Positions 8,799 through 59,417 of a stretch of 64,000 bases of DNA are shown here, one piece after another. The DNA is taken from the NCBI GenBank assembly GCA_900546715.1, contig UREA01000005.1:5032-69031 (forward strand), given 5' to 3'. The stretch comes from an uncultured Mycoplasmatota bacterium. Its GTDB lineage: Bacteria; Bacillota_I; Bacilli_A; RF39; UBA660. A model generated the notes under the pieces. The model ran no database searches, was not told where the DNA came from, and was given only the letters and a program-made list of their open reading frames with translations. Both the position numbers and the translations under genes were made by a program. Numbering within the stretch: the first letter of the stretch is position 1; the number at the start of each line of letters is the position of its first letter.

Positions 8799-9068
8799 TA
8801 ACAACATAGTCTGGCTATATGGTGACATATAGAAAACAAGATGGTGAACCCGTACTTGCGGGGTGTGTCTAAAAAGATGCTAACAGTGAAAATCTTGGCC
8901 TACTGAATCGGGTTATGACAACACTGTGCCAAGGCCAAAAGGCAAGGTGCAACGACTAAGTGGCATTATGGTGAAATTCCTATTGTCCAGCGCCATCCTC
9001 TCTATTCTTATAGAGATGAAGATATAGTCTGATCTCATAGAAAATCATAACTATGAGCTAACACAATG
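8799..9068 (+). mobile_element. group I intron, ORF-less (dnaE intron 1)
   Basis: Follows exon U8798 and ends at G9068. Guide gtctgg (8809-8814) pairs with exon ccagat (8793-8798), with a terminal G.U. P7 strands are caacgacta (8950-8958) and aagatatagtc (9019-9029). Removal gives ..ELPD|IDNDSE.., restoring PDIDxD. Confidence 0.85.
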
Positions 9069-10197
9069 ATTGATAATGATTCAGAAGCCTCTAAAAAGAA
9101 AACAATTATAGCAAAAATTAAAGAATATTTTGGAGAAGATAAAGTATTAAATATTATAACTTTTTCAAAAATTTCTTCTAAAACTGCTATACAAAAAGCC
9201 TGCAAAGGATTAGATATTAATAATGATATCGCAGGTTACTTAAAATCTTTGATTCCCGTAGATCGTGGTAAAGTTGCTAAATTAAAAGATTGTTTATTTG
9301 GTAATAAAGAAAAAGGAATCAAACCAGTATATGAATTAGTCTCTGAGATGAAAAAATATCCTAAGTTGCAAGAAACTTGCTTAGGAATTGAAGGACTTGT
9401 AACTAATAGAGGGATTCATGCTGCGGGTATAATTATATGTAACGAACCTTATACCAATTTTCTATCCGCTATGAGATCACCAGATGGAACTTTAATTACT
9501 GGATATGATTTAATTGATGCAGAACAAGTAGGTTGCGTTAAATTTGATATGCTAACTACTACATGCACTGATAAAATTCATAAAACTTTAGATTATTTGG
9601 TTAAATACAATAAAATAAAACCGGGGAAAAATTTGAAAGAAACTTATTATAATTGGATACATCCTGACGTATTAAATTATGATAATCCTGAAATGTGGAA
9701 AATTATTCCTACAATTTATTCAGTATTTCAATTTGACACTCCTATTTCAGTTAAAGCTCTGGAAGCTACAAAACCTAAATCAGTAATGGATTTATCAGCG
9801 GCCAATAGTTTATTAAGATTACAACCTGAAAATAGTTCTATTACACCTATTGATTCTTATATTAAATATAAAAATAATCATCAAGAATGGATAGAAGATA
9901 CTAAAAATTTTGGATTGAATGATAAAGAGCGTGAAATTCTTTGGAAATATTTAGCTGATGCTTATGGATTGGCAGATAGTCAAGAAAAAATTATGCGTCT
10001 AAGTATGGACTCAGAAGTATCTGGATATAGCTTAAAAGAAGCAAATAAATTAAGAAAATCTATCGCTAAAAAAGATGAAAAACTCCAAGCTGAAGCTAAA
10101 CAACAATTTTTTGAATATGGACGAAAAATTGGAACAAGAGAAGTATTTTTAGATTATATATGGAATGTAGTATTTGCAGCAAGTATGGGATATTCGT
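9069..10197 (+). CDS. dnaE: DNA polymerase III alpha, exon 2
   Basis: Continues IDNDSE... Contains GIHAAGIIIC and VKFDMLTT, typical of DnaE palm/fingers. Ends ..ASMGYS plus one nt (phase 1). Confidence 0.85.
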
Positions 10198-11225
10198 AAA
10201 AGATTGTTTAACCTAAACCTTGTGGCATGGTTATTCAATTAAGCGCCTCATAGTAGTAATATTATGAGTGGAGTTTGTGAACTGTTTGGTCAACAGGTGT
10301 GTGAATTATATTCATGCTAACAGAAAAAGCCTAAACTGAAAACAGCAAGGTGATTCTGTGCTAAGTTATAAGAAGTTTTAATATGCAATTATATAACGGC
10401 GATTGTTTAGAAGTAATGAAATCAATTCCAAATAAATCTATTGATTTAATTCTATGTGATCTACCTTATGGTATAACTAAATGTAAATGGGATACTCCTA
10501 TTGATTTATTTGCTATGTGGAATCAATATAATAGAATAATCAAAGATAATGCCCCAATTCTTTTATTTGCTCAAACTCCTTTTGATAAAGTTCTTGGATC
10601 ATCTAATTTATCTATGCTTAAATATGAATGGATTTGGGAAAAAACACAGGCAACAGGTCATCTTAATGCAAAGAAAATGCCGATGAAAGCACATGAAAAT
10701 ATTCTTGTGTTTTATAAAAAATTGCCAATTTATAATCCACAAAAAACAACCGGCCATAAACCCATTCATTCATATACTAAATATATTAAAACTCAAAATA
10801 ATACAGAACTATATGGATATATGAAACAAGAAATATCAGGCGGAGGAGAAACAGACAGATACCCAAGAAGTATTATCACTTTTGCTTCTGACAAACAAAC
10901 TTGTCATTTACATCCTACTCAAAAACCCGTCACTTTGCTTGAGTATTTTATTAAAACTTATACGAACGAAGAAATGTTAGTCCTTGATAATTGCATGGGT
11001 TCTGGCTCCACAGGCATAGCCTGTATCAACACAAATAGGAATTTTATTGGAATTGAACTTGATAAACAATATTTTGATATCGCTAAAGAAAGATTAACTT
11101 CTTATAAAAAGTGCAACGACTAAGTGAACGGAAATTGACTACCGTTTGAGCGCAAACTACCCTAATCTTATAGATGGGTAAAGATATAGTCTGCTCTACA
11201 TAGAAATATGTAGCTAACATTAAGG
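10198..11225 (+). mobile_element. group I intron carrying a DNA methyltransferase ORF (dnaE intron 2)
   Basis: Shares the atgctaacag block, caacgacta (11114-11122), aagatatagtc (11181-11191) and the ..agctaaca..g 3' end with intron 1. Splicing U10197 to after G11225 gives GYS|FSQLHSYSYSIVALQE, matching the DnaE motif GYGFNKSHaaaYa. No convincing P1 guide was found by eye. Confidence 0.75.
10383..11123 (+). CDS. beta-class N6-adenine/N4-cytosine DNA methyltransferase (intron-encoded)
   Basis: Motif IV DLPY (LILCDLPYG) precedes the AdoMet motif DNCMGSGSTG, which is the beta-class order. HPTQKPVTLLEYFI is also present. The stop codon lies inside the intron P7 5' strand (gcaacgacTAAgtg). Confidence 0.8.
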   Translation: MQLYNGDCLEVMKSIPNKSIDLILCDLPYGITKCKWDTPIDLFAMWNQYNRIIKDNAPILLFAQTPFDKVLGSSNLSMLKYEWIWEKTQATGHLNAKKMPMKAHENILVFYKKLPIYNPQKTTGHKPIHSYTKYIKTQNNTELYGYMKQEISGGGETDRYPRSIITFASDKQTCHLHPTQKPVTLLEYFIKTYTNEEMLVLDNCMGSGSTGIACINTNRNFIGIELDKQYFDIAKERLTSYKKCND

Positions 11226-12640
11226 TCTCTCAACTACATTCATATAGCTATTCTATTGTAGCTCTTCAAGAACTTAATCTAAATTATTTTTATCCTAAGG
11301 TTTATTGGAATTGTGGTTGTCTTTCTGTTGAATCTATGGGACTTAAAGACAATGAAGATGGTACACAAAAAATTGGTAATACTAATTATGCAGAAATTTC
11401 AAAAGCCATATATAAGATGAAACAATCTGGTATAAATGTATTACCTCCTTCTATTAATAATTCTGATATAGATTATGTTCCCTCGGAAGAAAAAGATATA
11501 ATATATTTTGGCCTTATAGGAATTTCTGGAATTAATATCAACATTTGCCAACAAATTATTGAAAATAGACCTTATAATTCATTCAAAAACTTTTATGAAA
11601 AAAATTGTTATGATGGTAGTTTAATTACACATAGCAAATTTATTCAATTAATTAAAGCAGGTTGTTTTGATGAATTTAATTCAGACCGAACAATAATAAT
11701 GAAACAATATGTTATATTATCTACTCCTATTAAAGATACATTAACAATGTCTAATCTTCCAGAAATATTAAGAATTAAATGCAATATACCGAAAAATATT
11801 ATCGAGCCTTATTATTTCAAAAAATATGTAATTAATAAGCAATTTTTATATGGACAGCATCCTAATTTTAAGACAAAGAAATTATATTGGTTAGATAATA
11901 AAGCTCTAAAATACTTTGAAAAACATTGTAAATTAAAGATGAAAGAAAATATAGATTGGTTACAAAAAGATGATTTAACTTTAATAGTTGACAAATCTTT
12001 AGAGAAAGCAATTTCTTCTCAAATACAGTCTTTGAAAGATTATATTTCCAATCCTTCTTTTATACAAGAATATAAAAATAAAACATATATATATTATTAT
12101 TCAAATATGTTAGATAATAAAGACCCTAATCATTGGTCTATTGAATCATGTGGATTTTATTCTAATCAACACGAATTATTAAACATCAATAGACAAAAAT
12201 ATAATATTTCTTTATTTGATGATATTCCTTTGTCTCCCGTATTTTATACCGAAAAATACGGAAAAAAAGAATGGAAGAAATATGAATTATATCAAATTGC
12301 TGGAACAGTTATTGATAAAATTGACAATCATCATTTAGTTACTATTCTTGATATTAATAACAAAGTAATCCAATGCAAGTTTGATAAAAATGATTATGCT
12401 TATTATAAAGCTCAAATTAGTGACACAAATGGTGATAAAGGAAAAAATATAATAGAAATTTCTTGGTTTAGAAGAGGAACAACTTTAATTTTAACTGGAT
12501 ACCGTATAGGATTAAATGATTTTCGCATAAAAACTTACAAAAACTCAATTTATAACAAAAAAGTAAAAAAAATTTGTTCTATCAATGATAAAACCGGAGA
12601 AATTATTACTCAAAGTGATAAACAAATAATTGAAAAATAA
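11226..12640 (+). CDS. dnaE: DNA polymerase III alpha, exon 3: C-terminal part with OB-fold region
   Basis: The frame is open from 11226, upstream of the first ATG at 11336. FSQLHSYSYSIVALQELNLNYFYPKVYW continues the DnaE motif. Confidence 0.8.
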
Positions 12641-12648
12641 AATATTAT

Positions 12649-12689
12649 AAACAGAGAGTTATTATAAATGGCTCTCTGTTTATTTTTTT
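12649..12689 (+). terminator. intrinsic terminator after dnaE
   Basis: Stem aacagagag/ctctctgtt (12650-12680) followed by a T run. Confidence 0.65.
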
Positions 12690-12700
12690 CTAAAAAACTA

Positions 12701-13339: not shown

Positions 13340-15583
13340 ATGCTTAAAGTACATTGTATTCCACAAAAAATTCTGTATGAAAATATAGATAATGATTATA
13401 AAGTATTGTCTTGTAAATATATAGATTCTTCTGAAGAAATGGAATTGTCTGAATATAATAGTTTTACTTTATCTGGAGAAAATCTTGGGTCTTTGATTCT
13501 TAATCAAAAAGCTCATTTAGTAATACAAAAAGTAGAAAATAGTAAATATCCAAATTCTTATTTAATGCTTATGTATGATGGAATTGCTATTACAGACAAT
13601 ATTCATGTTGAATCTAAATATGAATTAGAAATTTTATGCAGATTTATGGAGCCATCACAAGCAAAGAATATTAATAAATCTTATCCTAATTTTATTGAAA
13701 AAATATTAAATAATCAAATTTCTGATATTGATTATAAAAAAATTTACAATGTGGGTGAAAAACGATTAAATTCATATATTGAAAAAATAAAAAAAGATTG
13801 TATTAGTATTATTTTCTTTCCTGTTCTAAATAAATATGGAATTAAAACAAAGCATGATATTAATACAATTATTAAAAAATATGAATCTATTCCAATTTTT
13901 GAAGAAGAATTCAAAAAAAATCCTTATTATATTTATATTGATTTATTAAATTATTCTTTTTCAAAAGCAGATCGTATGATATTAAATCTTATTCCTGCTT
14001 TTAAAGATAGCTTTCATAGATGCGAATATGGAGTATTAGAAATTCTTAGACAAAATGAAGATAATGGAGACACTAAAATTAAAATTCCATTATTACTTTC
14101 TGTTTTAAGAGAGCTTGTTCCTCAATCATATCATTATGCTAAAGAAGTTATTATAAATAATACAAAAATTTATTATAACAAAGAAACTTTATATGTTTCT
14201 AAAATAACGACATGGATGAATGAAATTTATATTGCGGACAATATTGTTAATAGAATAACTGGAACTAATTCTTTCAATAATATTTGTATAGATTGGGATC
14301 AATTCAAAAAAAATAAAAAAGAAGATTTTGAATATACAGAAGAACAGTGCAATTTTTTAAAGCTTATAGCAAGCGGAAATAAAGTGGTTATGTTAAATGG
14401 CCCAGCAGGAACAGGGAAAAGCCAAACAACAAAAGCTATTGTCCGTATGTTAGAATATTATAATTTTTCTTATACTTTATTAGCTCCTACTGGTATCGCT
14501 TCTACACGTCTAAAAGAAGCTACAAGTCGAGAAAGTTCTACAATACACATGTATTTAGCTAAAGAAAAAGAACCAACCAATTATTATATTATAGACGAAT
14601 TTTCAATGGTCGGTGTCAATTTATTGGCTGATCTACTAAGAACTATTCCGTCTGATTCCAATTTAATTTTTATTTGTGATAATGCTCAATTAGCATCTAT
14701 AAGCTGCGGTAATGTTTTACAAGATATGTTAAATGCTAATATTATCCCTAATGTTACATTAACAAAAGTTTTTAGATATGGGATTGGCGGTATCGCCACT
14801 ATATCTACTGACGTTAGACAAGGAAATATTAACCATATTAATGAACAATACAATGACTTTGTATATATTGAAAATCAAAATTATAATGAACAAATTTCCG
14901 CACTAATTGAACAATATGATAGATTAATAGAAAAAGGATATACATATAAAGATATATTAATTTTACTTCCTTTCAATATTGGTCCATTAGGAACTTACAA
15001 AATTAATCAAACAATTCAACAAAAATATAATAATAATATCACTTCTAAATGTTGCCGATCATTGTCTAAAAATGAAGATATATATTTCAAAATTGGAGAC
15101 AAAGTAATTAATACAAAAAATAATTATTTTATCCCATATATCAAATATGATGAAAATGAGATAGAATATTATATTGATAAGCCTTGTATGAATGGAGATA
15201 TTGGATACGTTAGAGAAATAAGATGCGACAATCAAAATCAATACTCATTGGTAATTGAATTTAATAATGGTTTAGCTTTGATAAAAAAAGAAAACTTAAA
15301 TCATATCTTATTAGCTTATGCTATATCTATTCATAAAGTACAAGGCGCTTCTGCTAAAGCTATTATCACCATTATTCAATCTGAGCATAAAAAAATATTA
15401 TCCAGAAATTTATTATATGTGGCTTTATCAAGAGCAAAAGAACAATTAATTTTAATCAGTAATAAAAATATCTTAAATTCTATTTTAGAAATTCAAGAAA
15501 ATTATGAAAGAAATACATGGTTATACGAAATATTAATGTTATTAAAAAAGGAGAAAATTAAAATCATTGAAAGCAATAATTAA
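13340..15583 (+). CDS. RecD/RecD2-like SF1 DNA helicase
   Basis: Walker A LNGPAGTGKS, Walker B IIDEFSMV, and C-terminal motifs SIHKVQGASAKAII and LLYVALSRAKEQLILI. Confidence 0.75.
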   Translation: MLKVHCIPQKILYENIDNDYKVLSCKYIDSSEEMELSEYNSFTLSGENLGSLILNQKAHLVIQKVENSKYPNSYLMLMYDGIAITDNIHVESKYELEILCRFMEPSQAKNINKSYPNFIEKILNNQISDIDYKKIYNVGEKRLNSYIEKIKKDCISIIFFPVLNKYGIKTKHDINTIIKKYESIPIFEEEFKKNPYYIYIDLLNYSFSKADRMILNLIPAFKDSFHRCEYGVLEILRQNEDNGDTKIKIPLLLSVLRELVPQSYHYAKEVIINNTKIYYNKETLYVSKITTWMNEIYIADNIVNRITGTNSFNNICIDWDQFKKNKKEDFEYTEEQCNFLKLIASGNKVVMLNGPAGTGKSQTTKAIVRMLEYYNFSYTLLAPTGIASTRLKEATSRESSTIHMYLAKEKEPTNYYIIDEFSMVGVNLLADLLRTIPSDSNLIFICDNAQLASISCGNVLQDMLNANIIPNVTLTKVFRYGIGGIATISTDVRQGNINHINEQYNDFVYIENQNYNEQISALIEQYDRLIEKGYTYKDILILLPFNIGPLGTYKINQTIQQKYNNNITSKCCRSLSKNEDIYFKIGDKVINTKNNYFIPYIKYDENEIEYYIDKPCMNGDIGYVREIRCDNQNQYSLVIEFNNGLALIKKENLNHILLAYAISIHKVQGASAKAIITIIQSEHKKILSRNLLYVALSRAKEQLILISNKNILNSILEIQENYERNTWLYEILMLLKKEKIKIIESNN

Positions 15584-32693: not shown

Positions 32694-32730
32694 TTAAAAA
32701 TATAAGAGGGGAAGTTATCCCCTCTTATAT
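32694..32730 (-). terminator. hairpin overlapping the tape measure stop codon
   Basis: Stem ataagagggg/cccctcttat, followed on the - strand by atattttt. Confidence 0.45.
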
Positions 32731-35700
32731 GCTGTCTGATAAGCAAAATTAACTAAAGATTGAACAAATTCTTGAACGTCATTTTTATTCTTAATACTTG
32801 GGAAAGATAAATCTACATTACTCATATTAAGCTGGAATCCTTTGTCTTCTGTCGGTAAATTGCTTAAAAGATCAATAGGATTCATTTTGCCCCAATCCCA
32901 TAAATTCTTTGTGACATCAGAAGGGAGAATACTATCCCCAGTATTTAATAACCTAAGTTCAGGCCCTTCTTCTCCCACAAGAGACATACCGCCTTTAGAA
33001 GACAAAGTGCCCTTAGCATTCTTTTCAACTAATTTGCTCCAAAGACCATTAATTGGATTATATTTAGCACCAGGAGTATATGGATGTACAATCTCATAAT
33101 CTCCTCCGGCTGTATGAATAATATCACCAATAGTAGCACCTTCTGGAGCATTACCGCCTGGAGCTACATCTAAATGTTTCCCGCCACCAACATATTCACT
33201 TTGATAGCTACCATCTTCATTAACTCCTGTAATTCTATAATTACCACCAGCAGTTGAAACTATTGTGCCAACAGGTAATCCCTTAGTTTGTGTTTTACCA
33301 TCCTTAATATCAACATCTATAACACCGACACCAGGAACCCAAGCAGTACCCGGAGTCCCTCTTCCACCTTCGGCATTTGGACCAGATACTACTGTATTTT
33401 TATCTTGCCCTGTTTGCCAATTTTCGTTTTCGAGTTGTTGCATGAGTTGAATATATCGGTCAACATAATCCTGTAAATTACCAAGACGTTTTTCCCAATT
33501 ATCTCCCTCAAGTTTAATACCTAATATTTGTTCGGCTAATAAACGATCTTGAAGATCATTGACTTCGTCAATAGCACTACCATATTCATCAACATAATCC
33601 TGCCAATATTTAATTTTTTCTTCAAGAATTTTTAACTCTTCGTCTCTATTTTTCTCTAACTGCTCTATTTGCTCTTCGAGAGCCTTTTCAGCCTTATATC
33701 TATCCAGCTCTTTTTGCGCTTCAGAAATAGCGTCTGTATCTTGTATATATTGAAACCGTCCATCTTTATATACATACAATTTTTGAGTACGAGCTTTTGC
33801 TAAGGCATCCAACTTTTCTTGAAGCTCTATCTGCTCATTAGTTTCTTCATTTTGCTTCTCTAATTTTTCTATCTCAGCATCATATTTATCATTAATAGCA
33901 TCTTTTTGCTCTTCGAGTTTGTCTATTTCTCTTTGAGCTAATTCAGCTACATAATTTAAGGCTTTTTCAATATTATCAGCTTCAGTTTCCCACGCATCAC
34001 GTTCAGCCTCTATATAATTATCGAGCGCATCTTCTCGTTGTTCAAGATAATACTCATAATCAATTAAGCCTTGTTCATACCAATCGTCCATCCATTCCAT
34101 GACGCGACGCCAAGCATCAATTTCATTATCAGCGCCCCAATCATTGAAATAATTACGATCTTCTATATAATCTTCTGAGCGTTTTAATCGTTTATCAAAG
34201 GCATCCTGTTGGAGTTTAAGAATATCTTCTTCATACCCCCACCACTCTTTCTGAAGTTCCATTATATACTCAGACTCATCGTCAAGTCCTTGTTTTCTAT
34301 AACTTTCAGCTTCATCATGAGCTTTCTTTTGCATTTGACGTAAATGAGCTATCTGTTCTTGTTCAGTAGCACCATTCTTTTCCATTAAATACAATTTATG
34401 ATCTAATATATCCATCTGTTCTTTATACAGATCATTTTGTTCTTTAATGGCATCATTTTCATCCTTTATTGCTTTGGTAGAAGATTTAGCAGTAGATGTC
34501 TTTTTCTTGGAAGCAGAAGATGAAGAGGAAGAAGAAGGTTTTTTAGAAGATGGCGGTTTCGAGGTAGAAGGTTTTGACCCAGAAGGTTTTTTATCTCCCC
34601 ATAAATTTCCAACAGTGTCTGAAACATCTATTATAGATTGTCTTCCTGTACCTTGAGCATATCCACCTTTTACATCTTCTTTTTCTACTTTATGCCCAAC
34701 ATTCCTACTAATGTCTTTATTAGAAGTAACAACCGCTCCTTTGGGTAAAGTAACTATTTCAGGACCTTGTTCTCCTACCCAATATTGCCCGGCTCTATTT
34801 ACTTTACCTCCCTGAGCTTTGCCGCCGCCAAGATCAGGAATAATATAACCTAAAACTTTCTGAGCACCGGAACCAATTTGTGAAATAATTCCCTTCAAAC
34901 TATTCCAAATTGAACTGACTCTATTATAACAATTTTGAGCAGCAGAAATTAAACCGCTGAATGCGCCCTGAGATGCACTTGTATCTACTGGATTATTTGT
35001 AACCTCTTGTTGAGCATCTTTTACTCCTTCAACAGGTCCAGCAGCATCTTCAGCCGCAGACTTTTCTTCATTTAATTCGGTCTGACTTGCATCTGTATTA
35101 GCCGGATTTTCAGTCACTCTCTTTTGAGCAGTGGCAACTAATTCTAATGCTCTTGCATCGGCATCTGCTACTCCCTTACTCTCTAAGAAAGAAGCAATCA
35201 TGTCAACATTCGCATTAGCCAGTCCTTCAACGCCTAATTGAGCCTCTAACATCGTATAAGCTAAATTAGTGACTTGTTCTTGAAATTCCTCAAAAGTGGT
35301 AGAACCAGATACAAGCCCCTCAAGAATTTCATCCCAACCTTCCAATCCACTAAATGCTTCATTTAACTGCATAATAGACTCAAAACTTAACTGTCCATTT
35401 TCAGCAAATTCAGCTACAGATTGAGAAAGTATGTCAAAATATCCGCCTACATCTCCTAAACCACTTAATTGCCCTGATAAAGAATTTATGCTTTCTGCCG
35501 CCGCCTCAATAGTTGTTCCAAAATGATCCTGAAAGAAATCAAGAACACTAATGGTTTCTCCATTTAGTACCATTACAGCATTCTTTAATCGTTTTGGAAG
35601 CTCTCCTGTCTTTGCATATAACTGAGTCATTGTATCCCAATATTCAGTTAATACGCCCTCTTGCTCTAAAAGGTCATCATTAGCTTCAGCTATTTGCTTA

Positions 35701-36884
35701 AAATCGCCAGTACTTAAAGCCTCATCGACTGCTTTTTGATAATTATTCCACTGAGTAATTGCTTTTTCGATATATAGCTCAGTGTCCATCATTTCTCCAG
35801 TAATAGTAGCACGAGTTTTTTGTCCTGATGCTATTCTATCACCGATCGGAGAAGCAGTTAAAATAGCTTCTAATTTTTCAGTCTCAAGAGACGCTATATT
35901 GTTCTTCATCTGTTTTAATTGCTCATTATAAGCTGCTAAAACAGATGCACTTGCACCGCTACCCTCTAATTCTGCTATTTTCTGTTCAAGTTCGGAAACA
36001 GCTTCTGTTGTTTCATCAATCTCATCTTGAATAACATGCTCGGCAGTAGCTTCTTCCATAGATTTCTTTGCAGCAAATCCAATGGAAATAAGCGCACTAA
36101 CTAACATCGCAATAGGTCCAGCAAAAGTCCCTATTTTGCTTAATGCCCCAGATAGTTTACCAACAGAACCAGACGCTTTACCAGCGGCAGAAGCAATACC
36201 ACTTATAGCATCACCAGTAGCAGAAGCAGCGGAAGCAGCTTTGCCCACATCCCCCATAGTGGAAAACAATTTACCCATATTAACAAATTTAGCTCCCACT
36301 TTCCCGGCAATAGCTAAGAAACCTGTGAGAACTCCGCTTAATAAAGTAAATTGTGTTACTGCTACGCCAACATCTGTTGATAATAACTCTAACCCAGTGT
36401 TAGCTAAATCTAATATTCCTTTAACCAAATCACTATCTATAACAGAAGTAGATAGTTCTTGGAAAGTATTTTTAAGGTTGCCAACTTTTGCCTCTAAGCT
36501 ATCCATATAAGCGGCATTTTCTCTTGTGGCAGAACCTGCAGAATCCATTGCAGTTGCCGTTGCACTTATAGCAGATTCAAAGTTGGTCATAACAGAAGTT
36601 AATACGTTAAATTGGTTTTTACCAGCAAGAGCCTCACCAATAGCAGCTTGTTCTACACTGGCTAATTCATCCCAAGCAACCGATTGACCTTCTACACCTT
36701 CATAAAGTTCTTTTAAAACTTCATATGTTGATTTCATTTCTCCCTGAGAATCTCTCAGAGAAATATTAACTTTGCCATTAGCAGCTACATATTTATCTGT
36801 TTCAGCCGCTAATGCTGCTATGTTCAACCCTATTGTTCGTAGACCATTGCCCACCTTACTTGGCTGGCCTACAAGGATTTCAGT
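32715..36884 (-). CDS. tail tape measure protein, exon 5
   Basis: The frame is open upstream of the track start back to 36884. It begins TEILVGQPSKVGNGLRTIGLNI, the conserved TMP core motif. Long coiled coils, hydrophobic segments and two VGE.GPE motifs follow. Confidence 0.85.
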   Translation of the reverse strand, partial: TEILVGQPSKVGNGLRTIGLNIAALAAETDKYVAANGKVNISLRDSQGEMKSTYEVLKELYEGVEGQSVAWDELASVEQAAIGEALAGKNQFNVLTSVMTNFESAISATATAMDSAGSATRENAAYMDSLEAKVGNLKNTFQELSTSVIDSDLVKGILDLANTGLELLSTDVGVAVTQFTLLSGVLTGFLAIAGKVGAKFVNMGKLFSTMGDVGKAASAASATGDAISGIASAAGKASGSVGKLSGALSKIGTFAGPIAMLVSALISIGFAAKKSMEEATAEHVIQDEIDETTEAVSELEQKIAELEGSGASASVLAAYNEQLKQMKNNIASLETEKLEAILTASPIGDRIASGQKTRATITGEMMDTELYIEKAITQWNNYQKAVDEALSTGDFKQIAEANDDLLEQEGVLTEYWDTMTQLYAKTGELPKRLKNAVMVLNGETISVLDFFQDHFGTTIEAAAESINSLSGQLSGLGDVGGYFDILSQSVAEFAENGQLSFESIMQLNEAFSGLEGWDEILEGLVSGSTTFEEFQEQVTNLAYTMLEAQLGVEGLANANVDMIASFLESKGVADADARALELVATAQKRVTENPANTDASQTELNEEKSAAEDAAGPVEGVKDAQQEVTNNPVDTSASQGAFSGLISAAQNCYNRVSSIWNSLKGIISQIGSGAQKVLGYIIPDLGGGKAQGGKVNRAGQYWVGEQGPEIVTLPKGAVVTSNKDISRNVGHKVEKEDVKGGYAQGTGRQSIIDVSDTVGNLWGDKKPSGSKPSTSKPPSSKKPSSSSSSSASKKKTSTAKSSTKAIKDENDAIKEQNDLYKEQMDILDHKLYLMEKNGATEQEQIAHLRQMQKKAHDEAESYRKQGLDDESEYIMELQKEWWGYEEDILKLQQDAFDKRLKRSEDYIEDRNYFNDWGADNEIDAWRRVMEWMDDWYEQGLIDYEYYLEQREDALDNYIEAERDAWETEADNIEKALNYVAELAQREIDKLEEQKDAINDKYDAEIEKLEKQNEETNEQIELQEKLDALAKARTQKLYVYKDGRFQYIQDTDAISEAQKELDRYKAEKALEEQIEQLEKNRDEELKILEEKIKYWQDYVDEYGSAIDEVNDLQDRLLAEQILGIKLEGDNWEKRLGNLQDYVDRYIQLMQQLENENWQTGQDKNTVVSGPNAEGGRGTPGTAWVPGVGVIDVDIKDGKTQTKGLPVGTIVSTAGGNYRITGVNEDGSYQSEYVGGGKHLDVAPGGNAPEGATIGDIIHTAGGDYEIVHPYTPGAKYNPINGLWSKLVEKNAKGTLSSKGGMSLVGEEGPELRLLNTGDSILPSDVTKNLWDWGKMNPIDLLSNLPTEDKGFQLNMSNVDLSFPSIKNKNDVQEFVQSLVNFAYQTAYKRG

Positions 36885-37253
36885 CTTTTATGTTTAGAAT
36901 TTTTTGTTTAAATGAATTGTTCTAATTCCTTTTATATTTCTATAAAAAATAGACCATATCTTAATATATAATATTTTATATATTTAGGGCGCTTAGGCTT
37001 TCGCCTACACTACTCACTTCGTTTGTTAATACAACTTATTCTCTATTAAGAGTTACATTTATTATTTGCTTTCGTTGGCCGTTGAAGGTTATACTATATT
37101 TCAATAGTATCTTCCCTGCGGATTGTCTACATATTTTTATTCTTATTACTATACCTTTGGCATTACCCTAAGCCCTTATAATATCACTATTATAAGTTAG
37201 TAAATAAAACTTTAAGATATCCCCGCAATTCACCCTATACTGGCAAGAAATCC
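36885..37253 (-). mobile_element. group I intron, ORF-less (TMP intron 4)
   Basis: Follows exon U37254 and ends at G36885. Guide gccagt (37244-37239) pairs with exon gctggt, with G.U pairs. P7 3' strand is aagatatggtc (+ strand gaccatatctt, 36952-36962). Paralog of TMP intron 3. Confidence 0.8.
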
Positions 37254-37389
37254 ACCAGCCGTAACCAAACCTATCGTCTCTTCAAATGTATTCCCTGTTG
37301 TTCCTAATGCTGTACCAGCTTTTATAAGAGCAGTAGATAAATCATTAGTACCAACAGCAAAATTATTGGCTGTCTCATTGCTATATTAA
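37254..37389 (-). CDS. tail tape measure protein, exon 4
   Basis: Encodes (V)NETANNFAVGTNDLSTALIKAGTALGTTGNTFEETIGLVTAG, a canonical TP901-type TMP core. It has no start codon of its own. Confidence 0.8.
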
Positions 37390-37724
37390 AATAAATTTTT
37401 ATTATTTGTTTAATATTCGACTATATCTTTATATTTAACTAAATATATCAGGGCGCTTGGGCTTTCGCCTACTCTACTCACTTCGTCTATTAAAATAGCT
37501 TATTCTCTATTAAGAGTTACATTTATCATTTGCTTTCGATAGTCTGTGAAGATTCATCTTTGTTTCAAAAGATGCTTTCCTGCGGATTGTTTATTATTAT
37601 ATCCTTTTTCCTTATTACTATTCCTTTGACATTACTCTCAGCCCTTATAATATCACTATTATAAGTTAGTAGAAAAAGACATTAAAATATTCCCGCAATT
37701 CACCCTAAAACGGCCTTTATTAAA
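37390..37724 (-). mobile_element. group I intron, ORF-less (TMP intron 3)
   Basis: Follows exon U37725 and ends at G37390. Guide gccgt (37714-37710) pairs with exon gcggt. P7 3' strand is aagatatagtc (+ strand gactatatctt, 37428-37438). Confidence 0.8.
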
Positions 37725-37924
37725 ACCGCATCAATAATATGCTCGGAATTTTCAGCCTCTATATTAAAGGCTTTCATTTGAGAGATCAAAAATCGTGCTG
37801 CGTCAGCACTTGATACTTGAGTATCAGCTATATTTGTATATTTAACCGCTATTTCTGCTAATAAAGCAGAATCACTATCATCAAAAGAGTTTTTTCTGAA
37901 TTCAGTGGCAGCTTGTAACATTTC
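37725..37924 (-). CDS. tail tape measure protein, exon 3
   Basis: Encodes EMLQAATEFRKNSFDDSDSALLAEIAVKYTNIADTQVSSADAARFLISQMKAFNIEAENSEHIIDA(V). The exon may begin 3 nt earlier, at 37927. Confidence 0.75.
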
Positions 37925-37930
37925 CGACAG

Positions 37931-38188
37931 TTAATCATCTATTGGACCATATTCTTCCATTTGTTCATTTTGCTCTCGATTATCTTCTTCAATCATTGAT
38001 TCAATAACTCCTTCATCTGTTTTCTCCTTTGAAAAAATAGCACAAAAAATCCCTGTTATTCCTACCATAATAAATGGTAAACAAACTACAATTTTTGGCA
38101 ATTCAGAAGGTCCAGCATAAAGAATAGCTAAAAGAATAAACCAAGCAATTATTAAAACAAAAACAAACAAACACACCATGACTCCCAT
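37931..38188 (-). CDS. intron-encoded small membrane protein (two TM helices plus an acidic tail)
   Basis: RBS aaggaga and ATG at 38188. Sequence VCLFVFVLIIAWFILLAILYA and IVVCLPFIMVGITGIFCAIF, then EEDNREQNEQMEEYGPIDD. The stop lies 3-6 nt before the 3' splice site. Confidence 0.5.
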   Translation of the reverse strand: MGVMVCLFVFVLIIAWFILLAILYAGPSELPKIVVCLPFIMVGITGIFCAIFSKEKTDEGVIESMIEEDNREQNEQMEEYGPIDD

Positions 38189-38209
38189 CTCCTTTTTAAT
38201 TCTATTATA

Positions 38210-38239
38210 ATTTTATCACTCATAAAATTAAAAAGTCAA
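38210..38239 (-). promoter_or_regulatory. sigma70-like promoter inside TMP intron 2
   Basis: On the - strand: ttgact (38239-38234), 18 nt, then extended -10 TGaTAAAAT (38218-38210). Confidence 0.45.
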
Positions 38240-38559
38240 TAGACAATTTTAACAAAAATACTTTCATATTTTCCTGGACTATTTCTTCACCCTATAATAT
38301 TTGGAGGGGTCGAACTTTTAAAGTCTCTTGACACATCCCTCATCAGGACTTCGCAACCAATCAACCATTCAATGATTATATAATCATTCCAGACTTAGGT
38401 ATTTCTACCATATCTTATTCTATTTATTGTTAATAGTTTCCCGCATTCATATTATCATATCTCATATAATATTGTAGCTAAATAGACTTTAGGTGTTATT
38501 GGATTTTGAACGATTCTCAGTGCTAATTTACCATCTTAACACTCCGGCCAGAAATATTA

Positions 38560-38648
38560 ACCGGTACGCCCAAACTGTTTACCAGCTTGAGATAATTGTG
38601 AAGTATAACTCTGCAGTCCTTCTTCACTCAGGTCAGAAACTTTCTTGA
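38560..38648 (-). CDS. tail tape measure protein, exon 2 (89 nt micro-exon)
   Basis: Encodes (F)KKVSDLSEEGLQSYTSQLSQAGKQFGRTG, which matches the TMP consensus ..ALTEFRKVSDLSgE.. when joined to exon 1. It falls below the ORF-track length threshold. Confidence 0.75.
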
Positions 38649-39046
38649 CATTTATATTAGGAAGTAATTGATAAAATATCAATTATATGGACGCTACTCC
38701 ATTCCCCTGTTTATATAACAGCTTTAATTTTCATTAAAGATTAGACTATATCTTCTTCTATAAATAATAGAAGTGTGCCATTTCAAAATACCAAACACTT
38801 GTATTTTTACTCCTTTTCAGGATAGTCGTTGAACGTTCCTTTATTCAAGGCTTCGCTGCTGATTATCTATTAATATTTACTTAGGATTTAACCATATAAA
38901 CATATTTTGCTTTTTTTCTACTTTCGTAACATTCACACTTAGGCATGTTTCATCCTTATGTTGTAGTAGCAAAATCTTTAAGACGTCCCAGCAATTAGAC
39001 ACATATTTTTACACTCATCTCACAATAAGCGAGAGCAAAAAAGTTC
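38649..39046 (-). mobile_element. group I intron, ORF-less (TMP intron 1)
   Basis: Follows exon U39047 and ends at G38649. Guide gctct (39036-39032) pairs with exon agagt. P7 strands are caacgacta (+ strand tagtcgttg, 38823-38831) and aagatatagtc (+ strand 38744-38754). The 5' half is near-identical to the tail-tube intron. Confidence 0.85.
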
Positions 39047-39320
39047 ACTCTGTCAATGCGCTATCTAATTCAAAGACTTGATCCACCATAGACCTAATAG
39101 CACTTGCCGAAGCATCCATAATCATATTTGCTTCTTGGAAAGTTAAGCCTATGTCCTTAGCAATGTCATTCAAATTTTTAGCACTATTTGTCGCCTTATC
39201 TAATCCCGAAGAATCAGCACTTATTTTTATTTTAGAATCTATTCCTTTTAACTGACTCTTTATACTTGATAAATCAAGTTCTACATCAGTTATAATAGAA
39301 TAATTAGAGCCTCCTGCCAT
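39047..39320 (-). CDS. tail tape measure protein, exon 1
   Basis: ATG at 39320 with RBS aaggatggg. Ends ..MVDQVFELDSALTE plus one nt. Confidence 0.8.
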
Positions 39321-41888: not shown

Positions 41889-43145
41889 CAAGATTTTGAT
41901 TACTTTATGTTCACATAAGTTCGTTAATCTTATGCCGTTTTTAACAGCTTACACTTTCGTGCAAGAACAGACTATATGTTCAACTTAATTGTTCGTTATT
42001 CGTCATGTCAATATACCCAATAGAATGACCGGCCAACAAATAATCAATTTCTTGTTGTAATCTTTCTATTGTAGGTATACTATCTTTTTTATCACCTAAA
42101 ATACGCAAAACTTTATACCCTTGATTAATCAACCAATGATTTCTACGTCTATCATAATCTTTCATATCTTTATGCCAAAATACCCCGTCATACTCGACAT
42201 CAATCTTAACATTATTAAGAATTAATAGACAATCTAAATTTATTTTATCAACAGGATAACCAGGTTTGCAATTTTCTTTACCATATAATTGAATTAACAT
42301 ATTGATAATTTTTTGTTCTGGCTTAGATGTTGGCACTGTTCCATTTTTATACATAGATTTTTTGGCCTTAGCTTGCAATATATCACTTTTAACAGGATTA
42401 TCAACACCATAATTTTTAATCATACTATTTTTAAATTTTTCTTGTCCTATTTTTGTTTGCATAGCATAAGGTTTGCCGTATTTAGAAATCATTGACTCTT
42501 TAGCTTTAGCCCGTAATTTTTTATTTCCCCATAAAGAAGTTGAATTATATTTTCTTAATAAAGTATCTCGTATTTTTAGTTGTTTACATTGTTTACATGC
42601 CTGTTTACCGCGATCTTTTCCAATATTATAATTTGCATATCTTGTTTGATATTGTCTTCCGCAATAATCACATATACAAATCACATTCATTCGACTTCTT
42701 AAAGGCATATCTTTTGCAGGAACAAAAAACTCATCACCAATATATGTATAATGATATCCTTTGCTAATATAATGTTTTTTATTATTTGAAGACCATTTTA
42801 CTGATATTATTTGATTATCATTAAACATTTCATTCCTCCTTTCTATAAAAATATAACGAACAATCAAGTGCCGGATTTTTCAACTCACTTGAGTTTACTT
42901 CCCCACAAGGGAATAGTCGTTGAACCTTTCTCTATTCGAGAAGTGGCTGCTAAATACCCATTGCATAAACACTTAGGATTTAACCTTATGTCATTCTTTG
43001 CTTTTTTTCTACTTTCGTAACATTCACACTTAGGCATATTTCATCCTTATGTTGTAGTAGCAAAGACTTTAGGGATTCAAAGCAATTAACCCGGAGCATA
43101 TACTAATCACTTAATATATGTGGCATTATTTTTAAGCAATCTTGG
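41889..43145 (-). mobile_element. group I intron with a homing-endonuclease-like ORF (tail tube intron)
   Basis: Follows exon U43146. An 8-bp P1 forms between guide gcttaaaa (43137-43130) and exon ttttaagt. P7 strands are caacgacta (+ strand 42914-42922) and acatatagtc (+ strand 41970-41980). A 40-nt block (42998-43037) is identical to TMP intron 1 (38907-38946). Confidence 0.8.
41980..42828 (-). CDS. intron-encoded putative homing endonuclease (zinc ribbon, K..k.SM..kYG repeats, C-terminal Vsr/DUF559-like PD-(D/E)XK domain)
   Basis: ATG at 42828 after RBS aaggagg. CICDYCG...CKQCK zinc ribbon. Three repeats: KAKESMISKYGKP, KFKNSMIKNYGVDNP and KAKKSMYKNG. The C-terminus IDVEYDGVFWH...GYKVLRI resembles a DUF559/Vsr-type nuclease. 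The stop abuts the P7 3' strand. Confidence 0.55.
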   Translation of the reverse strand: MFNDNQIISVKWSSNNKKHYISKGYHYTYIGDEFFVPAKDMPLRSRMNVICICDYCGRQYQTRYANYNIGKDRGKQACKQCKQLKIRDTLLRKYNSTSLWGNKKLRAKAKESMISKYGKPYAMQTKIGQEKFKNSMIKNYGVDNPVKSDILQAKAKKSMYKNGTVPTSKPEQKIINMLIQLYGKENCKPGYPVDKINLDCLLILNNVKIDVEYDGVFWHKDMKDYDRRRNHWLINQGYKVLRILGDKKDSIPTIERLQQEIDYLLAGHSIGYIDMTNNEQLS

Positions 43146-43797
43146 ACTTAAAAATTTCACCATCCATTTGTAATCTTGGTACATCAGTAATTAACCGACC
43201 ACAACGGGTCTGATCAGTTTGTACATTAATATCACCAGAATATAAATCATTTAAAATAACCACATGAAGTTCAGAAGGAACATATTGAGTTTTAATTCTA
43301 ATAGATTTAGCGTTCTCATTCTGATAAAAATACTTGACACAATAATGATCGTTGCTCTGAGAACTAGGAATCGTCATAGTATTGCCACTAATAGCACCGA
43401 TCGTCCAATTAGAATCAGCAGGTTTCTTATACCAACCAATTAAAGTACCATCGAACATCACAGGAGTCTCAGTGAGTTCAACATTGCCTCCACCACCACT
43501 GACTGTCACTTCTTCTTCTATAACAGATAAGCCTCCAGATTCAATATTAACGCCAAGAGAAGCCGCAATATACTCGAAGTTGAACATTGTGTCGGTCAAA
43601 GTGATAGCTAAGTTACTGTCATGGAAGAATTTACCCCACAAAGCATTACCTTGACCGCCACGAACTTCTTCGGCGGTAATAGTGAAATCGAAGGTAGTAT
43701 CAGTTAAAGTTTTAGCTACGCCAATTAACTCATTATTCTTAAAAATTAATGCACGACCTACGCCAGCAGCATAATGATTTTGAGCCATTAATTTCAC
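43146..43797 (-). CDS. major tail (tube) protein, exon 1
   Basis: Position and size fit a tube protein, and the exon ends in ..LITDVPRLQMDGEIFK. The stop codon of the unspliced frame lies inside the intron guide sequence. Confidence 0.65.
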
Positions 43798-47187: not shown

Positions 47188-47188
47188 A

Positions 47189-55470: not shown

Positions 55471-56337
55471 TCATTCCTCTTCAATAGGAATATCTGGATA
55501 TATAGTATCACCTGTCAAAATATTTTTCATAGACCTCATCCAACTATTATAAATCTTTTCATAACCTGCAATATCACTATATTTTGCTCGATCTTCTTCT
55601 TCCGCTGGTTCAGTTTCTTCTATCATCCAAGCAATTCTATCAATAAATTTTTGGCGTTCATCTTTTTGATTTATAGAAAAGTCATTCATTTTTAACAAAT
55701 TAAGTTGCTTATTCAAACTTTCTTGAGCACGACTAATCTCTGTACCATCATTAATCTCATTGGCTTTTCGCAATCTTAATTCACATTTCGCCAAATCTCT
55801 AAATCTTTTTTCTAAATTAACATCTATATCTAATAATTCAGAAGTATATTCTTCATACGTTTTATTTAAAAACTCATAAGATTCTCGGTCAAGTTGTTTA
55901 GTATTTATATCAACATAAAAATTACCCCAAATTTTTCTTTCTTCTTCTAAATTCAATTCTTGCTTTGGGACAATTTCATCTTTTTTTATTTGAATTAGAT
56001 CATCTAACATGACATCACTTTCCCAAAATCCGTTCACAAGACGACCATCTTCTATCAAAGTTTTTAAATACAATAATAAATAATCTTTTCCTCTACGTCC
56101 AGCAGAAGGATAAGTTTCTACAATTTTCCATATTTCAGAAATAAAAGGAATGCCAATTTCAGATAACACCAGCCAAAAAGCAGCAGATTTTTTATCTAAT
56201 ATATTTTCATACTCTTTTAATTTTTGTCCACAGCAATTTTTGCATAAAAATATATATTCTTCTTTAATTTTAGGAGATTTATAAAATTCTTTAGAATCTT
56301 TTATTTCTCCACAACACCCACATAATTTTCTTCCCAT
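55471..56337 (-). CDS. possible terminase small subunit (N-terminal zinc ribbon)
   Basis: CGCCGE...CKNCC. Position upstream of terL. Confidence 0.35.
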   Translation of the reverse strand: MGRKLCGCCGEIKDSKEFYKSPKIKEEYIFLCKNCCGQKLKEYENILDKKSAAFWLVLSEIGIPFISEIWKIVETYPSAGRRGKDYLLLYLKTLIEDGRLVNGFWESDVMLDDLIQIKKDEIVPKQELNLEEERKIWGNFYVDINTKQLDRESYEFLNKTYEEYTSELLDIDVNLEKRFRDLAKCELRLRKANEINDGTEISRAQESLNKQLNLLKMNDFSINQKDERQKFIDRIAWMIEETEPAEEEDRAKYSDIAGYEKIYNSWMRSMKNILTGDTIYPDIPIEEE

Positions 56338-56356
56338 TTTTCCTTTATTCTAATAT

Positions 56357-57583: not shown

Positions 57584-58061
57584 TCATTTTCTTAAAATCT
57601 TTTTTAGAATTTTCAATTCTAACGCTACTAATACTACCATAGCTTTCTAATTTTTGAGCTCTAACTTCTCTTAAATAATCTCTTTTACTCAATTTTTGAT
57701 TTTTCAATCTTTTTCTAAATTGCTTAGTTACTCCTTGCATATTTATATCATTAATAAAATGATCGCTTGCCGTAAAGAAAGGAACATCACGTTCTGGAAC
57801 TCTATAAGTAACTAAATTACCTTTAGGATCATGTTGCACAGACATTTGTTCTTTCATTCTTTTAGTATAGAAATTTCCAATAAATGGTACTCTACATTTT
57901 CCTTTATAATATACTTCATGTATTATAAACTCTAAAAAACCTTGTTCCCAATATTCTTTTACTTTTTCTGGAGAAATATTCAATTTTTTACTTACTCCAA
58001 TATAAAATTCCTTGTCAGTCAAATATGTTATTTTTGAAGCCATATTATTCCTCTTTGTCAA
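57561..58061 (-). CDS. HU/IHF-like DNA-binding protein (extended)
   Basis: ..KCRVPFIGNFYTKRMKEQ....DPKGNLVTYRVPERDVPFFTAS.. resembles the HU arm region. Confidence 0.4.
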   Translation of the reverse strand: MTKRNNMASKITYLTDKEFYIGVSKKLNISPEKVKEYWEQGFLEFIIHEVYYKGKCRVPFIGNFYTKRMKEQMSVQHDPKGNLVTYRVPERDVPFFTASDHFINDINMQGVTKQFRKRLKNQKLSKRDYLREVRAQKLESYGSISSVRIENSKKDFKKMIDDKKNG

Positions 58062-58389
58062 AAAATTCGGTTTTCCTTTTTAATCTTTTTCTGAAAGCTG
58101 AACTAAATTTAATACGCGGGTCTAAATATCCTGGATAATCTTTAGGAGGTAAAAATTCTCCTTTAGCCGGATTAAAATATACTTTATTTAATCTTGGAGG
58201 TTTTACTTTAAAACTAATTTTACCAATATTCAATACTTGAATGTCAATATAATTAGCTAAACATTCTTCTACAATGTCCTCATAAACTTTAAATACTTCT
58301 TTAATTGCTGAATAAGGAACACCAGTTCTATTCATAATTTCCGTATATGCTTCTTGATTTGTAATATAAGGATATTGTTTCTTTCCCAT
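58045..58389 (-). CDS. HU/IHF-like DNA-binding protein
   Basis: ..IQVLNIGKISFKVKPPRLNKVYFNPAKGEFLPPKDYPGYLDPRIKFSSAFRKRL fits the HU-fold pattern. Confidence 0.5.
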   Translation of the reverse strand: MGKKQYPYITNQEAYTEIMNRTGVPYSAIKEVFKVYEDIVEECLANYIDIQVLNIGKISFKVKPPRLNKVYFNPAKGEFLPPKDYPGYLDPRIKFSSAFRKRLKRKTEFFDKEE

Positions 58390-58464
58390 TTTTATTCTCC
58401 CTATTTGTTTCTATTTTATTTATTAAATATAATAATATTTTATATATTTCAATAGATTGTCGGC

Positions 58465-59107
58465 TTATTCTGAGTTCCGTTTTTCTTTTTTCCTTTGATT
58501 TTTCAGTTGTAATGAGCATTTTTCACTACAGGTTAGAGTATGTAATGCCATGTTTTTAGGAATAAATCTTCTTCCACAAACAATGCAGATTCTACTTTTA
58601 GGGTCTAAATTATTTTGTATATTGTCTATCATCACATCACCAAAACAATCCCATAGTCCTTTTTTAGCAGAAGTTTTTCTAACTGTATATAAATAAGCAA
58701 CTAAAGTATTCACAATATATTTAATATCTTCTCCGCTTTCCTCAATAATTTTCTCTCTCATATTTTTGTATTTATACATATCTTGATTTTTTATCCCTTT
58801 GTTCTTTTCTTTGAAGGTATGTAATCGTTTATTATAATAATCATAAAGCTGTATTATTGAATTATTATCAGAGATATTAAAACCAAAATTTAAGTCCATT
58901 AACATACGATAATCAAATTTATTAATAGATTCAGAAAAAATTATCTTAGAATCCGGTATTTTTTCGGCTATACGATTCATGGCAGATTTATTTTTCAAAT
59001 TTACCTGTTCCTTTTTTTTATCTTTAGCATAAATAAAAAAGTAGGGCAATTTCATATTGGTGTTTCTTTTTATAATTTCCTTCACATCTTTAGGCGGCTC
59101 TGGCAAC
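58465..59107 (-). CDS. YonO-like two-barrel RNA polymerase, exon 3
   Basis: The frame is open upstream of the track start. Joins as ..NNAV(M)LPEPPKDVK.. . C-terminal zinc ribbon CIVCG...CSEKC. Confidence 0.6.
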
Positions 59108-59417
59108 CACAGTGTTTTAGCAGAATCTCTTTTCTACCCTCGGTTTCCCGATATTTATTAGGGGAATAGACTATATCTTCATCTCTATAAGAATAGAGAG
59201 ACCGGCACTTCGGAATAAGGAGTTTCACCTTAAACCTACTCCCTTATGGGATAGTCGTTGCACCTTCCTTTTTATCAAAGGCTTGGCACAGAGTTGCCAT
59301 AATTCAATTTAATAAATTAAGGTTTTCTCTGTTAGCATGAATAAAATCCACACACCCTGTATTTACAGGTTCACCGGTTTTTACTTATACATCGCTGTAT
59401 AAGGTGACTATTATTTA
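59108..59417 (-). mobile_element. group I intron, ORF-less (RNAP intron 2)
   Basis: Follows exon U59418 and ends at G59108. Guide gtcac (59408-59404) pairs with exon gtgat. P7 strands lie on the + strand at 59252-59260 and 59169-59179. A 33-nt block at 59168-59200 is identical to dnaE intron 1 (8998-9030) on the opposite strand. Confidence 0.85.

Follow-up and report, generated by a model that had tools for sequence, protein, structure and literature searches.

The DNA analysed here, a stretch of 64,000 nucleotides (the window) from contig UREA01000005.1 of assembly GCA_900546715.1, is phage DNA with 30% G+C. Its + strand carries a dnaE gene and its − strand a gene for a single-subunit RNA polymerase (RNAP), both split by introns. 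One intron in each gene, dnaE intron 1 (8799..9068, +, 270 nt) and RNAP intron 2 (59129..59417, −, 289 nt in its corrected limits), is a group I intron without an open reading frame (ORF), and the two have a block of 33 identical nucleotides in common. An original prediction had read this block as a sign of recent spread of one ORF-less intron between unrelated genes on opposite strands of the genome. The comparisons described here lead to a different picture: on the sequence evidence neither intron is a recent copy of the other, and the identity of a single helix, P8, points to intragenomic exchange of a module of ~19 nt and not of an intron.

The first exon of dnaE (7410..8798, +) encodes the PHP domain and the start of the DNA polymerase III (Pol III) alpha domain (Pfam PHP; DNA_pol3_alpha positions 4-103) and ends in GAG CTT CCA GAT (ELPD). 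Exon 2 (9069..10197, +), with the 3' end GGA TAT TCG T, encodes the rest of the alpha domain (Pfam positions 104-259) and the finger domain, and exon 3 (11226..12640, +) the HHH_6 domain and the C-terminus. The DNA_pol3_alpha profile of Pfam is contiguous over the junction of exons 1 and 2 (103 to 104), and DnaE once spliced is 1310 aa long with no internal stops. The limits first proposed for dnaE intron 1, 8799-9068, are exact, being fixed by the intronless DnaE homologues L144, L149, L150 and L151 (L-numbers are labels of compared loci and contigs), which read ELPDIDNDSEASKK. Its excision yields ELPD|IDNDSEASKK, and the insertion site is the catalytic PDxD motif (PD|ID) of Pol III alpha. 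In the predicted structure, exon positions 8793-8798 pair with the internal guide sequence (IGS) at 8809-8814 to form P1 (CCAGAU/GUCUGG). P2 (8815-8832) has a GUGA loop, P3 joins 8840-8846 to 8991-8997 (GAUGGUG/CGCCAUC), the R element with the 5' strand of P7 lies at 8946-8958, P9 is short (9034-9058) and the terminal guanosine (omega-G) is position 9068, all on the + strand. Much of the P2 hairpin (8815-8834, TATATGGTGACATATAGAA) recurs as the P9 hairpin in unrelated introns of L172, L173 and L178, which also have a P8 stem of the form CTCTCTAT/ATAGAG.

The RNAP belongs to the YonO family of the RdRP fold. Exon 1 (60600..62188, −) matches Pfam RdRP (PF05183, 3e-11), exon 2 (59418..59693, −, 276 nt) starts with C GAC GGT GAT AAA and completes the catalytic F-DGD motif, and the YonO-like exon 3 (58465..59128, −) starts with A GAT TCT GCT AAA ACA CTG TGG TTG (I-DSAKTLWL). 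Spliced, the three give an uninterrupted ORF of 842 aa with 46-47% amino acid identity to SPbeta YonO, annotated as a DNA-directed RNA polymerase, over the full length; a sequence search against the PDB gave no match. RNAP intron 2 had been placed at 59108-59417. The 5' start at 59417 was borne out and the 3' end at G59108 was not. The intronless RNAP homologues L129 and L134-L143 read NNAV-ID(S/Y/F)AKTL (NNAVIDSAKTLWLPEPPK), and the 3' end is set at G59129 because only excision of 59417..59129 restores their NNAV-IDSAKTLW-LPEPPK. Splicing to G59108 is in frame, yet its product would be without eight residues conserved in the intronless homologues. The coding sequence AT|A GAT TCT GCT AAA ACA CTG TGG starts directly after GAAAAG, and the 289-nt intron terminates in CCGAGGGUAGAAAAG, as its relatives do. 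The common gctaa(a)ac..tg ending earlier ascribed to the two introns is thus lost: on the RNAP side 'gctaaaacactgtg' is coding exon, and the intron ends before it, at the omega-G, G59129 (−). The insertion point is the NNAVI|DSAKTL segment of the YonO-like polymerase. The two introns both lie in conserved regions of genes for essential enzymes. P1 of this intron pairs exon GUGAU (59422-59418, −) with IGS GUCAC, the P2 loop is GCGA, and P9 has a UCGG-GAAA-CCGA hairpin. The guide of each intron pairs, as first proposed, with its own 5' exon, and excision restores the reading frame in both genes. No ORF of at least 60 aa is found within 8799-9068 or within 59129-59417.

Both introns are predicted self-splicing group I introns of one family. 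In short-stretch scans against Rfam RF00028, which has a gathering score of 50 bits, RNAP intron 2 scored 64.4 bits (E 3e-16) and dnaE intron 1 49.5 bits (E 8e-12). Scans of the whole window, in gathering and in E-value mode, reported neither, an effect of the speed filter, as the short-stretch scans found both. All exons end in U and all introns in G, and the R and S elements GGUGCAACGACUA and GAAGAUAUAGUCU are present in both introns. The two are collinear and share the blocks first noted in them, namely atagtc plus guide, the P2 hairpin, ggtgaacc, ggtgtgt..atgctaacag and ggtgcaacgacta. The family core blocks and covarying P2 and P3 are also found in dnaE intron 2, so the placing of all three introns in one structural family has stood up. 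RNAalifold on nine family introns gave 51 pairs, 35 of which show compensatory double changes (P2, P3, P4, P5, P6 and P7.1/7.2); P7 is invariant among the nine and hence uninformative on covariation. P3 is GAUGGUG/CGCCAUC in dnaE intron 1, ACCGGUG/GUGCCGGU in RNAP intron 2 and GUUUGUG/CGCAAAC in dnaE intron 2. The Rfam placement of P3 at AAGAUGCUA was dropped in favour of GAUGGUG/CGCCAUC, which covaries in nine introns. Every family member has two covarying hairpins between the 5' strand of P3 and P4 (8847-8884, +; 59334-59369, −; alignment columns 52-88). These are flanked by invariant GAAC, GGUGU and GCUAAC and account for the conserved GGUGAAC..GGUGUG..GCUAAC blocks; the Rfam model treats the region as an insertion and so misplaces P3. 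Helices P7.1/P7.2, which covary, are found between ACGACUA and P3' (columns 205-229 of the alignment), and both introns are predicted to be of IA type with P7.1/P7.2, IA2-like by these helices as seen here. P1, P2, P3 and P8 also appear when each sequence is folded singly (z-scores of -2.9 and -4.1). Other members of the family as assigned here are the intron in yonO of SPbeta-like Bacillus phages and numerous introns from phages of Firmicutes and of the gut. Such an assignment is ordinary, since several related introns per phage genome is a classical situation (T4, Twort, SPbeta, Bastillevirinae), and several related IA-type introns in essential genes of phages are familiar (PMC3984707, PMC11878797).

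The 33-mer itself (CTCTCTATTCTTATAGAGATGAAGATATAGTCT) occurs exactly twice in the window, at 8998-9030 (+) in dnaE intron 1 and at 59168-59200 (−) in RNAP intron 2, just as originally located. No third copy with up to three mismatches was found in the window, and none in 100 shuffles. In both introns the block consists of P8 (loop UCUU on a stem of 7 bp, UCUCUAU/AUAGAGA), J8/7 and the 3' strand of P7 (GAUGAAGAUAUAGUCU). A run of 33 identical columns arose in 0 of 50,000 column permutations of the pairwise alignment, and the identity is beyond chance. The last 14 bases (UGAAGAUAUAGUCU) match the universal group I consensus of the Rfam alignment; without them a run of 19 is left, with P ~0.01. 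In IMG/VR the exact 33-mer is limited to this phage species, and across 134 instances of the family every non-self copy departs from it at no fewer than 9 of the 33 positions, all in the P8 part. A universally conserved 33-mer was ruled out on these grounds, P8 being different in all other sampled family members.

Similarity over the rest of the introns was assessed by segment-wise alignments with ~130 other introns sharing the R and S anchors, and with orthologues found later. The two introns are 71.7% identical over 265 ungapped columns and 67.7% identical outside the 33-mer, and RNAP intron 2 has 5 nt more in P6, 11 nt more in P7.1, and a different and longer P9 (indel ~4-7 nt). The original statement that only the guides differ does not agree with this identity or with the indels in P6, P7.1/7.2 and P9. 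The segments of the introns are discordant in the relatives to which they point. Over P3-P6 the identity of the pair is 0.69-0.71, compared with a family median of 0.66-0.69 and best outsiders at 0.74-0.77. From P7.1/7.2 to P3' it is 0.55-0.61 (ranks 39 and 27 of 133), and the nearest sequences there are L009 (0.87), which is Enterocloster phage CB473P1, and L159 (0.81) for dnaE intron 1, and L194 (0.98), L080a (0.80) and L098 (0.78) for RNAP intron 2. P9 is at background level (0.60), and the ranks of the pair in the P7.1/7.2 and P9 segments run from 27 to 60 of 133. Only in P8 does the identity reach 1.00, the best value outside the phage lineage being 0.81, the family median 0.57 and the 95th percentile 0.71. 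In every segment but the P8 hairpin, then, the similarity is no greater than to unrelated introns, an outcome that had been named beforehand as one that would speak against recent spread.

A recent transposition of one ORF-less intron between dnaE and the RNAP gene, in either direction, by reverse splicing or ectopic homing and with essentially the guide alone changed afterwards, is very unlikely in the light of these figures. Such a move would fit two collinear introns of the same family with guides matched to their exons and an identical block of 33 nt, and other genomes do contain pairs of near-identical introns. True recent duplicates of this kind, the pairs in L174 and L163, are ~93% identical, across the 3' half. 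Recent duplicates should be mutual closest relatives and near-identical bar the guide. The present pair is at the 67-68% level outside the block with several indels, its members are not mutual nearest relatives in any segment but P8, and closer homologues occupy both sites in other phages. Transposition by reverse splicing is, furthermore, without direct experimental support according to a review (PMC3984707). Outside the block the identity is that of the family background, and the claim of recent intragenomic spread is not upheld.

Both introns have relatives at exactly their own sites. Enterocloster phage CB473P1 has a dnaE intron at the same point, 98% identical in P1-P2 and with an I-HmuI-like HNH ORF in P6, and the dnaE site is also occupied in L153, L159 and L154 from IMG/VR, where P2 and P9 differ from those of the window by compensatory changes. 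The site of RNAP intron 2 is occupied at the same nucleotide in L052, L184, L189, L190 and L194, the last of which has an RNAP locus 89-90% identical to that of the window and the same intron with a larger P5. Empty sites are found as well: L129, whose RNAP is 88% identical, is without RNAP intron 2, and L144, L149, L150 and L151, with DnaE 68-71% identical, are without dnaE intron 1. The empty sites in close relatives indicate that both introns were gained or lost recently enough to be polymorphic, and that this came about by homing-type inheritance at their own sites. As to the features of mobile introns, neither intron encodes an endonuclease, and presence/absence polymorphism among close relatives is evident.

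Against this background of resident introns it is P8 that stands out, since it is the most variable helix in the family and differs even where orthologues are 81-98% identical in the segments next to it. Its sequence at the dnaE site is CTCTCTTAAATAGAG in L159, CTCTCTCCTATTGGAGA in L153 and CTCTTGTTATTAAAACAAG in L009, and in RNAP-type introns TTGCTTCAATATGAAGT (L052) and CCCCTTAATAATTTAAGGG (the upstream intron of L129). It is suggested that P8 evolves faster than its flanks in both lineages. The variability bears on one account of the identity, namely retained ancestry plus chance, by which two introns of old divergence both kept P8 unchanged. With 14 of 33 bases belonging to the universal core, the chance of the remaining run of 19 is not astronomically small; the persistence of a helix with a median identity of 0.57, which has changed even where the sequence next door is largely alike, makes this account distinctly improbable all the same.

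Convergence or selective retention of P8 deserves more weight, although it too is unlikely. The helix could serve as the minor-groove receptor of a GNRA loop L2, or bind a splicing factor, of phage or host, common to both introns. The L2 loop is of the GNRA type in each intron (GUGA and GCGA), and CU:AG steps, which count under the rules for GNRA receptors, are abundant in the P8 stem. This 8-bp stem is found with different loops in 26 other contigs, and in L154 two introns agree in P8 at 19 of 20 positions between flanks that are not alike. Selection on the stem leaves the identity of the 4-nt loop unexplained, however, and the loop varies among strains, being TCTC in L186 and TTTT in L194, so that it is evidently free to vary. 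L194 keeps P8 yet has its L2 changed to GUAA, dnaE intron 2 of the same genome has a different P8, and the orthologues at both sites presumably work with quite different P8 helices. The near-identical P8 of the two divergent L154 introns can also be taken as a hint that P8 shuffling recurs.

An assembly or chimera artefact has next to no probability. Repeats of this length confuse assemblers, and in the metagenome contig OGEG01006828.1 (L191) the 33-mer is the exact seam between two sequences, with recJ, dnaE exon 1 and the 5' portion of dnaE intron 1 on one side and the 3' portion of RNAP intron 2, followed by RNAP exon 3, on the other. Both introns are nevertheless intact, with the block between their own flanks, in 8 IMG/VR loci and in at least seven independent ENA/JGI metagenome contigs. 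The layout of L191 is what inversion across the inverted repeat would produce. It was considered as a natural recombinant and set aside as a probable misassembly, its second junction, to unrelated G+C-rich sequence, following 233 nt later.

The explanation that we favour, and hold to be rather probable, is that the two introns are long-standing residents of their own sites and that P8 was copied from the dnaE intron into the RNAP intron by short-patch gene conversion. The origin is read in this way since P8 is hypervariable, is identical here and is of the dnaE-site type: the shared helix is 0.67-0.72 identical to dnaE-site orthologues and 0.44-0.56 identical to RNAP-type relatives. The lineage at the dnaE site usually has an HNH ORF in the P6 loop, which the copy in the window would have lost. 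The intron at the RNAP site is ORF-less here, and its spread would have required a nuclease acting in trans; co-conversion with the LAGLIDADG intron that lies 276 nt upstream is one way in which this could come about. P8 of the dnaE-site type would then have been copied into the RNAP intron within one phage genome, as a form of module shuffling. L194 already has the shared P8, with one loop change, so the transfer predates ~10% nucleotide divergence and the conversion would have taken place before the phage of the window and L194 diverged. One may speculate further that the 33-mer is the footprint of natural ribozyme module shuffling, in which the yonO-site intron, 50 kb off and on the other strand, received P8 from the dnaE-site intron by gene conversion without crossover and the helix was then kept identical by concerted evolution; for this fuller version the chances seem slightly short of even.

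Several observations weigh against the gene conversion explanation. The left edge of the block, where the P3' strands differ, has no homologous sequence beside it, and a conventional conversion tract is therefore hard to draw. Among the sequences compared, no high-identity RNAP intron of the pre-conversion type was found. The stem CUCUCUAU/AUAGAGAG (8 bp) recurs with other loops in the 26 IMG/VR contigs, which carry introns of other subfamilies, and this recurrence means that selection for the helix may contribute. The direction of transfer depends on a partial resemblance of P8 in only three dnaE-site orthologues. Finally, the score of dnaE intron 1 is 0.5 bit under the Rfam gathering score.

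If the fuller version with concerted evolution is true, the peripheral helices of phage group I introns are exchangeable cassettes, and introns residing in the same genome are not independent lineages. The pair offers a clean natural example of one ribozyme helix with a history of its own, with bearing on intron phylogenies, from which peripheral helices should be excluded or in which they should be partitioned, and on the exchange of parts between co-resident introns. Independently of this, the corrected splice sites yield the full-length DnaE (1310 aa) and YonO-like RNAP (842 aa) of a common uncultured gut phage.

The split dnaE lies in a replication module resembling those of SPbeta and the Enterocloster phages, together with genes for RecJ (5582-7231, +) and a RecD-like helicase (13340-15583, +). 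IMG/VR and ENA/JGI metagenome contigs contain near-identical copies of the phage, and several of these contigs bear the label human gut. A search of bacterial genomes, one per species, with the 33-nt block and a DnaE segment gave no relative and identified neither host nor prophage. The phage is unusually intron-dense: the 64 kb contain at least eight group I introns, and one of these has a DNA methyltransferase and not a nuclease as cargo.

This last is dnaE intron 2 (10198..11225, +, 1028 nt). It shares the blocks of the other two introns, as originally described, and is not ORF-less: its P6 loop (stem TTATAAGAAGT/ACTTCTTATAA) carries an ORF for a 246-aa N6/N4 DNA methyltransferase (10383..11123, +; Pfam N6_N4_Mtase, 1e-27; PHROG 67 DNA methyltransferase, 4e-79). 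Its limits were set by intronless homologues reading MGYSFSQLHSYSYS, which replaced an earlier delimitation of 10194-11224, and the join is MGYS|FSQLHSYSYS; the P1 pairing is weak, with 3-4 bp. The stop codon of the methyltransferase ORF falls inside the ribozyme core GTGCAACGACTAA. L001 and L006 have this ORF in intact form and L005 has it with a frameshift, and in the position where dnaE intron 2 has it relatives carry HNH endonucleases. A literature search gave no account of a group I intron with a methyltransferase as its cargo.

RNAP intron 1 (59694..60599, −) is a group I intron as well, of another subtype, and has a LAGLIDADG ORF at 59796-60407 (Pfam LAGLIDADG_2, 1e-22; PHROG homing endonuclease). 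It splits the catalytic DFDGD motif (QF|DGDK) and lies 276 nt upstream of RNAP intron 2; its limits are of the form U|...G, and splicing restores QFDGDK. At its counterpart in L194 (~1990-2195) the alignment gap is ~205 nt against ~747 nt in the window, which suggests that the L194 intron is ORF-less or a different version. The related phage L129, which has no RNAP intron 2, has an ORF-bearing intron farther upstream in RNAP exon 1 (~130-1440), before YYSSWQEYKDNF. In P6 and P9 this intron is nearly identical to RNAP intron 2 (P9 0.89), and its P8 is different; related introns thus sit at different sites of one gene in sister phages. L132/L133 (IMGVR_UViG_3300045988_168969, 73 kb) has the RNAP locus twice, mirrored about position 36,700, in what looks like a palindromic assembly artefact. 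In the dnaE homologue of L154 (1690-2990) two group I introns flank a 23-nt mini-exon, CCAGAGGTGCAGAACTTCCAGAT, and the downstream one has ORFs in its P8 loop; it is the upstream intron and a third one (~6360-6430) that have P8 alike at 19 of 20 positions between divergent flanks.

Elsewhere on the − strand, region 36854-39045 has four Rfam group I matches of the classical AAUUGCGGG/AAUCCGCAG type, at 38722-39036 (65 bits), 36930-37336 (41 bits), 37407-37748 (22 bits) and 38255-38384 (28 bits). They sit between a 1379-aa tape-measure ORF (32715-36854) and an ORF at 39045-39320, a hydrophobic 85-aa ORF (37931-38188, −) lies in the same region, and the tape-measure gene seems to be split several times. 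A probable group I intron at ~41950-43130 (−), with GGTTCAACGACTA at 42914-42926 and GAACATATAGTC at 41970-41981, holds a 295-aa homing-endonuclease ORF (41980-42867) and adjoins the gene of a virion structural protein (43132-43797).

The two introns have their closest described relatives in yonO of SPbeta-like phages and in dnaE of Enterocloster phages. A literature search gave no paper on introns in yonO-type genes or on those of Enterocloster phages, both of which are in GenBank records. The yonO intron of phi3T, SPR, SPbetaL4 and Goe14, where the gene pieces are annotated yonO_2/yonO_1, lies in the same gene as RNAP intron 2 at 46-47% amino acid identity of the products. It has in common with RNAP intron 2 GTGAACC..GGGTGTG..GCTAACAG, GGTGCAACGAC, P7.1/7.2, the P9 motif CCCTAATAAATATCGGGAAACCGAGGGTA and the arrangement of P3-P4 hairpins, and its 3' half is 78-80% identical over 143 nt. 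It differs in being inserted 4 nt downstream, after the Asp codon, in its interior ORF of ~300 aa and in its P8, CATCTGT..ACAGATG. The dnaE introns of Enterocloster phages CB457P1-CB473P3 and of L153, L159 and L154 share with dnaE intron 1 the identical site (ELPD|ID), P7.1/7.2-P3' at 0.81-0.87 and a P8 of the CUCU..AGAG type. They differ in that their P6 loop, or in L154 the P8 loop, contains HNH ORFs of the I-HmuI-like kind; the majority have a long P9 with a GAAA hairpin where the copy in the window is short, and none has the P8 loop of the window.

More distant are the IA2-type introns of Herelleviridae (Twort orf142 and the terminase introns of K-like Staphylococcus phages and of Listeria A511/P100), which in J8/7-P7'-P9 (GAAGATATAGTCT..CCCCTAATAAATATCGGGAAACCGAGGGTA) are 94-96% identical to RNAP intron 2 over ~50 nt and differ from it in their 5' halves and host genes. 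Phages of the Herelleviridae/Bastillevirinae have many introns per genome, and in these the intron subgroup is decoupled from the nuclease cargo (PMC11878797). In collaborative homing, ORF-less introns are mobilised by a nuclease supplied in trans (PMC3984707). The present introns may be compared with such systems in that they are ORF-less, sit at conserved sites and have a homing endonuclease nearby, in the LAGLIDADG intron 276 nt from RNAP intron 2; unlike in those systems, no nuclease cutting either empty site was identified here.

Phage T4 offers, by analogy, the nearest precedent for an exchange of P8. As in the phage of the window, several related group I introns reside in different genes of the one T4 genome. 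Laboratory recombination among the homologous T4 introns td, nrdB and nrdD/sunY has reportedly been described, by Hall, Liu and Shub in Nature in 1989 and by Bryk and Belfort in the same journal in 1990. Short identical stretches of the core are the substrates for this recombination between introns, which gives chimeric introns, and the identical core stretches of the present introns may have acted in a similar way. The events in T4 were laboratory-selected crossovers that rearranged the genome, whereas the event proposed here would have taken place in natural populations, without crossover, and would have left a patch confined to P8 between two introns that lie 50 kb apart on opposite strands.

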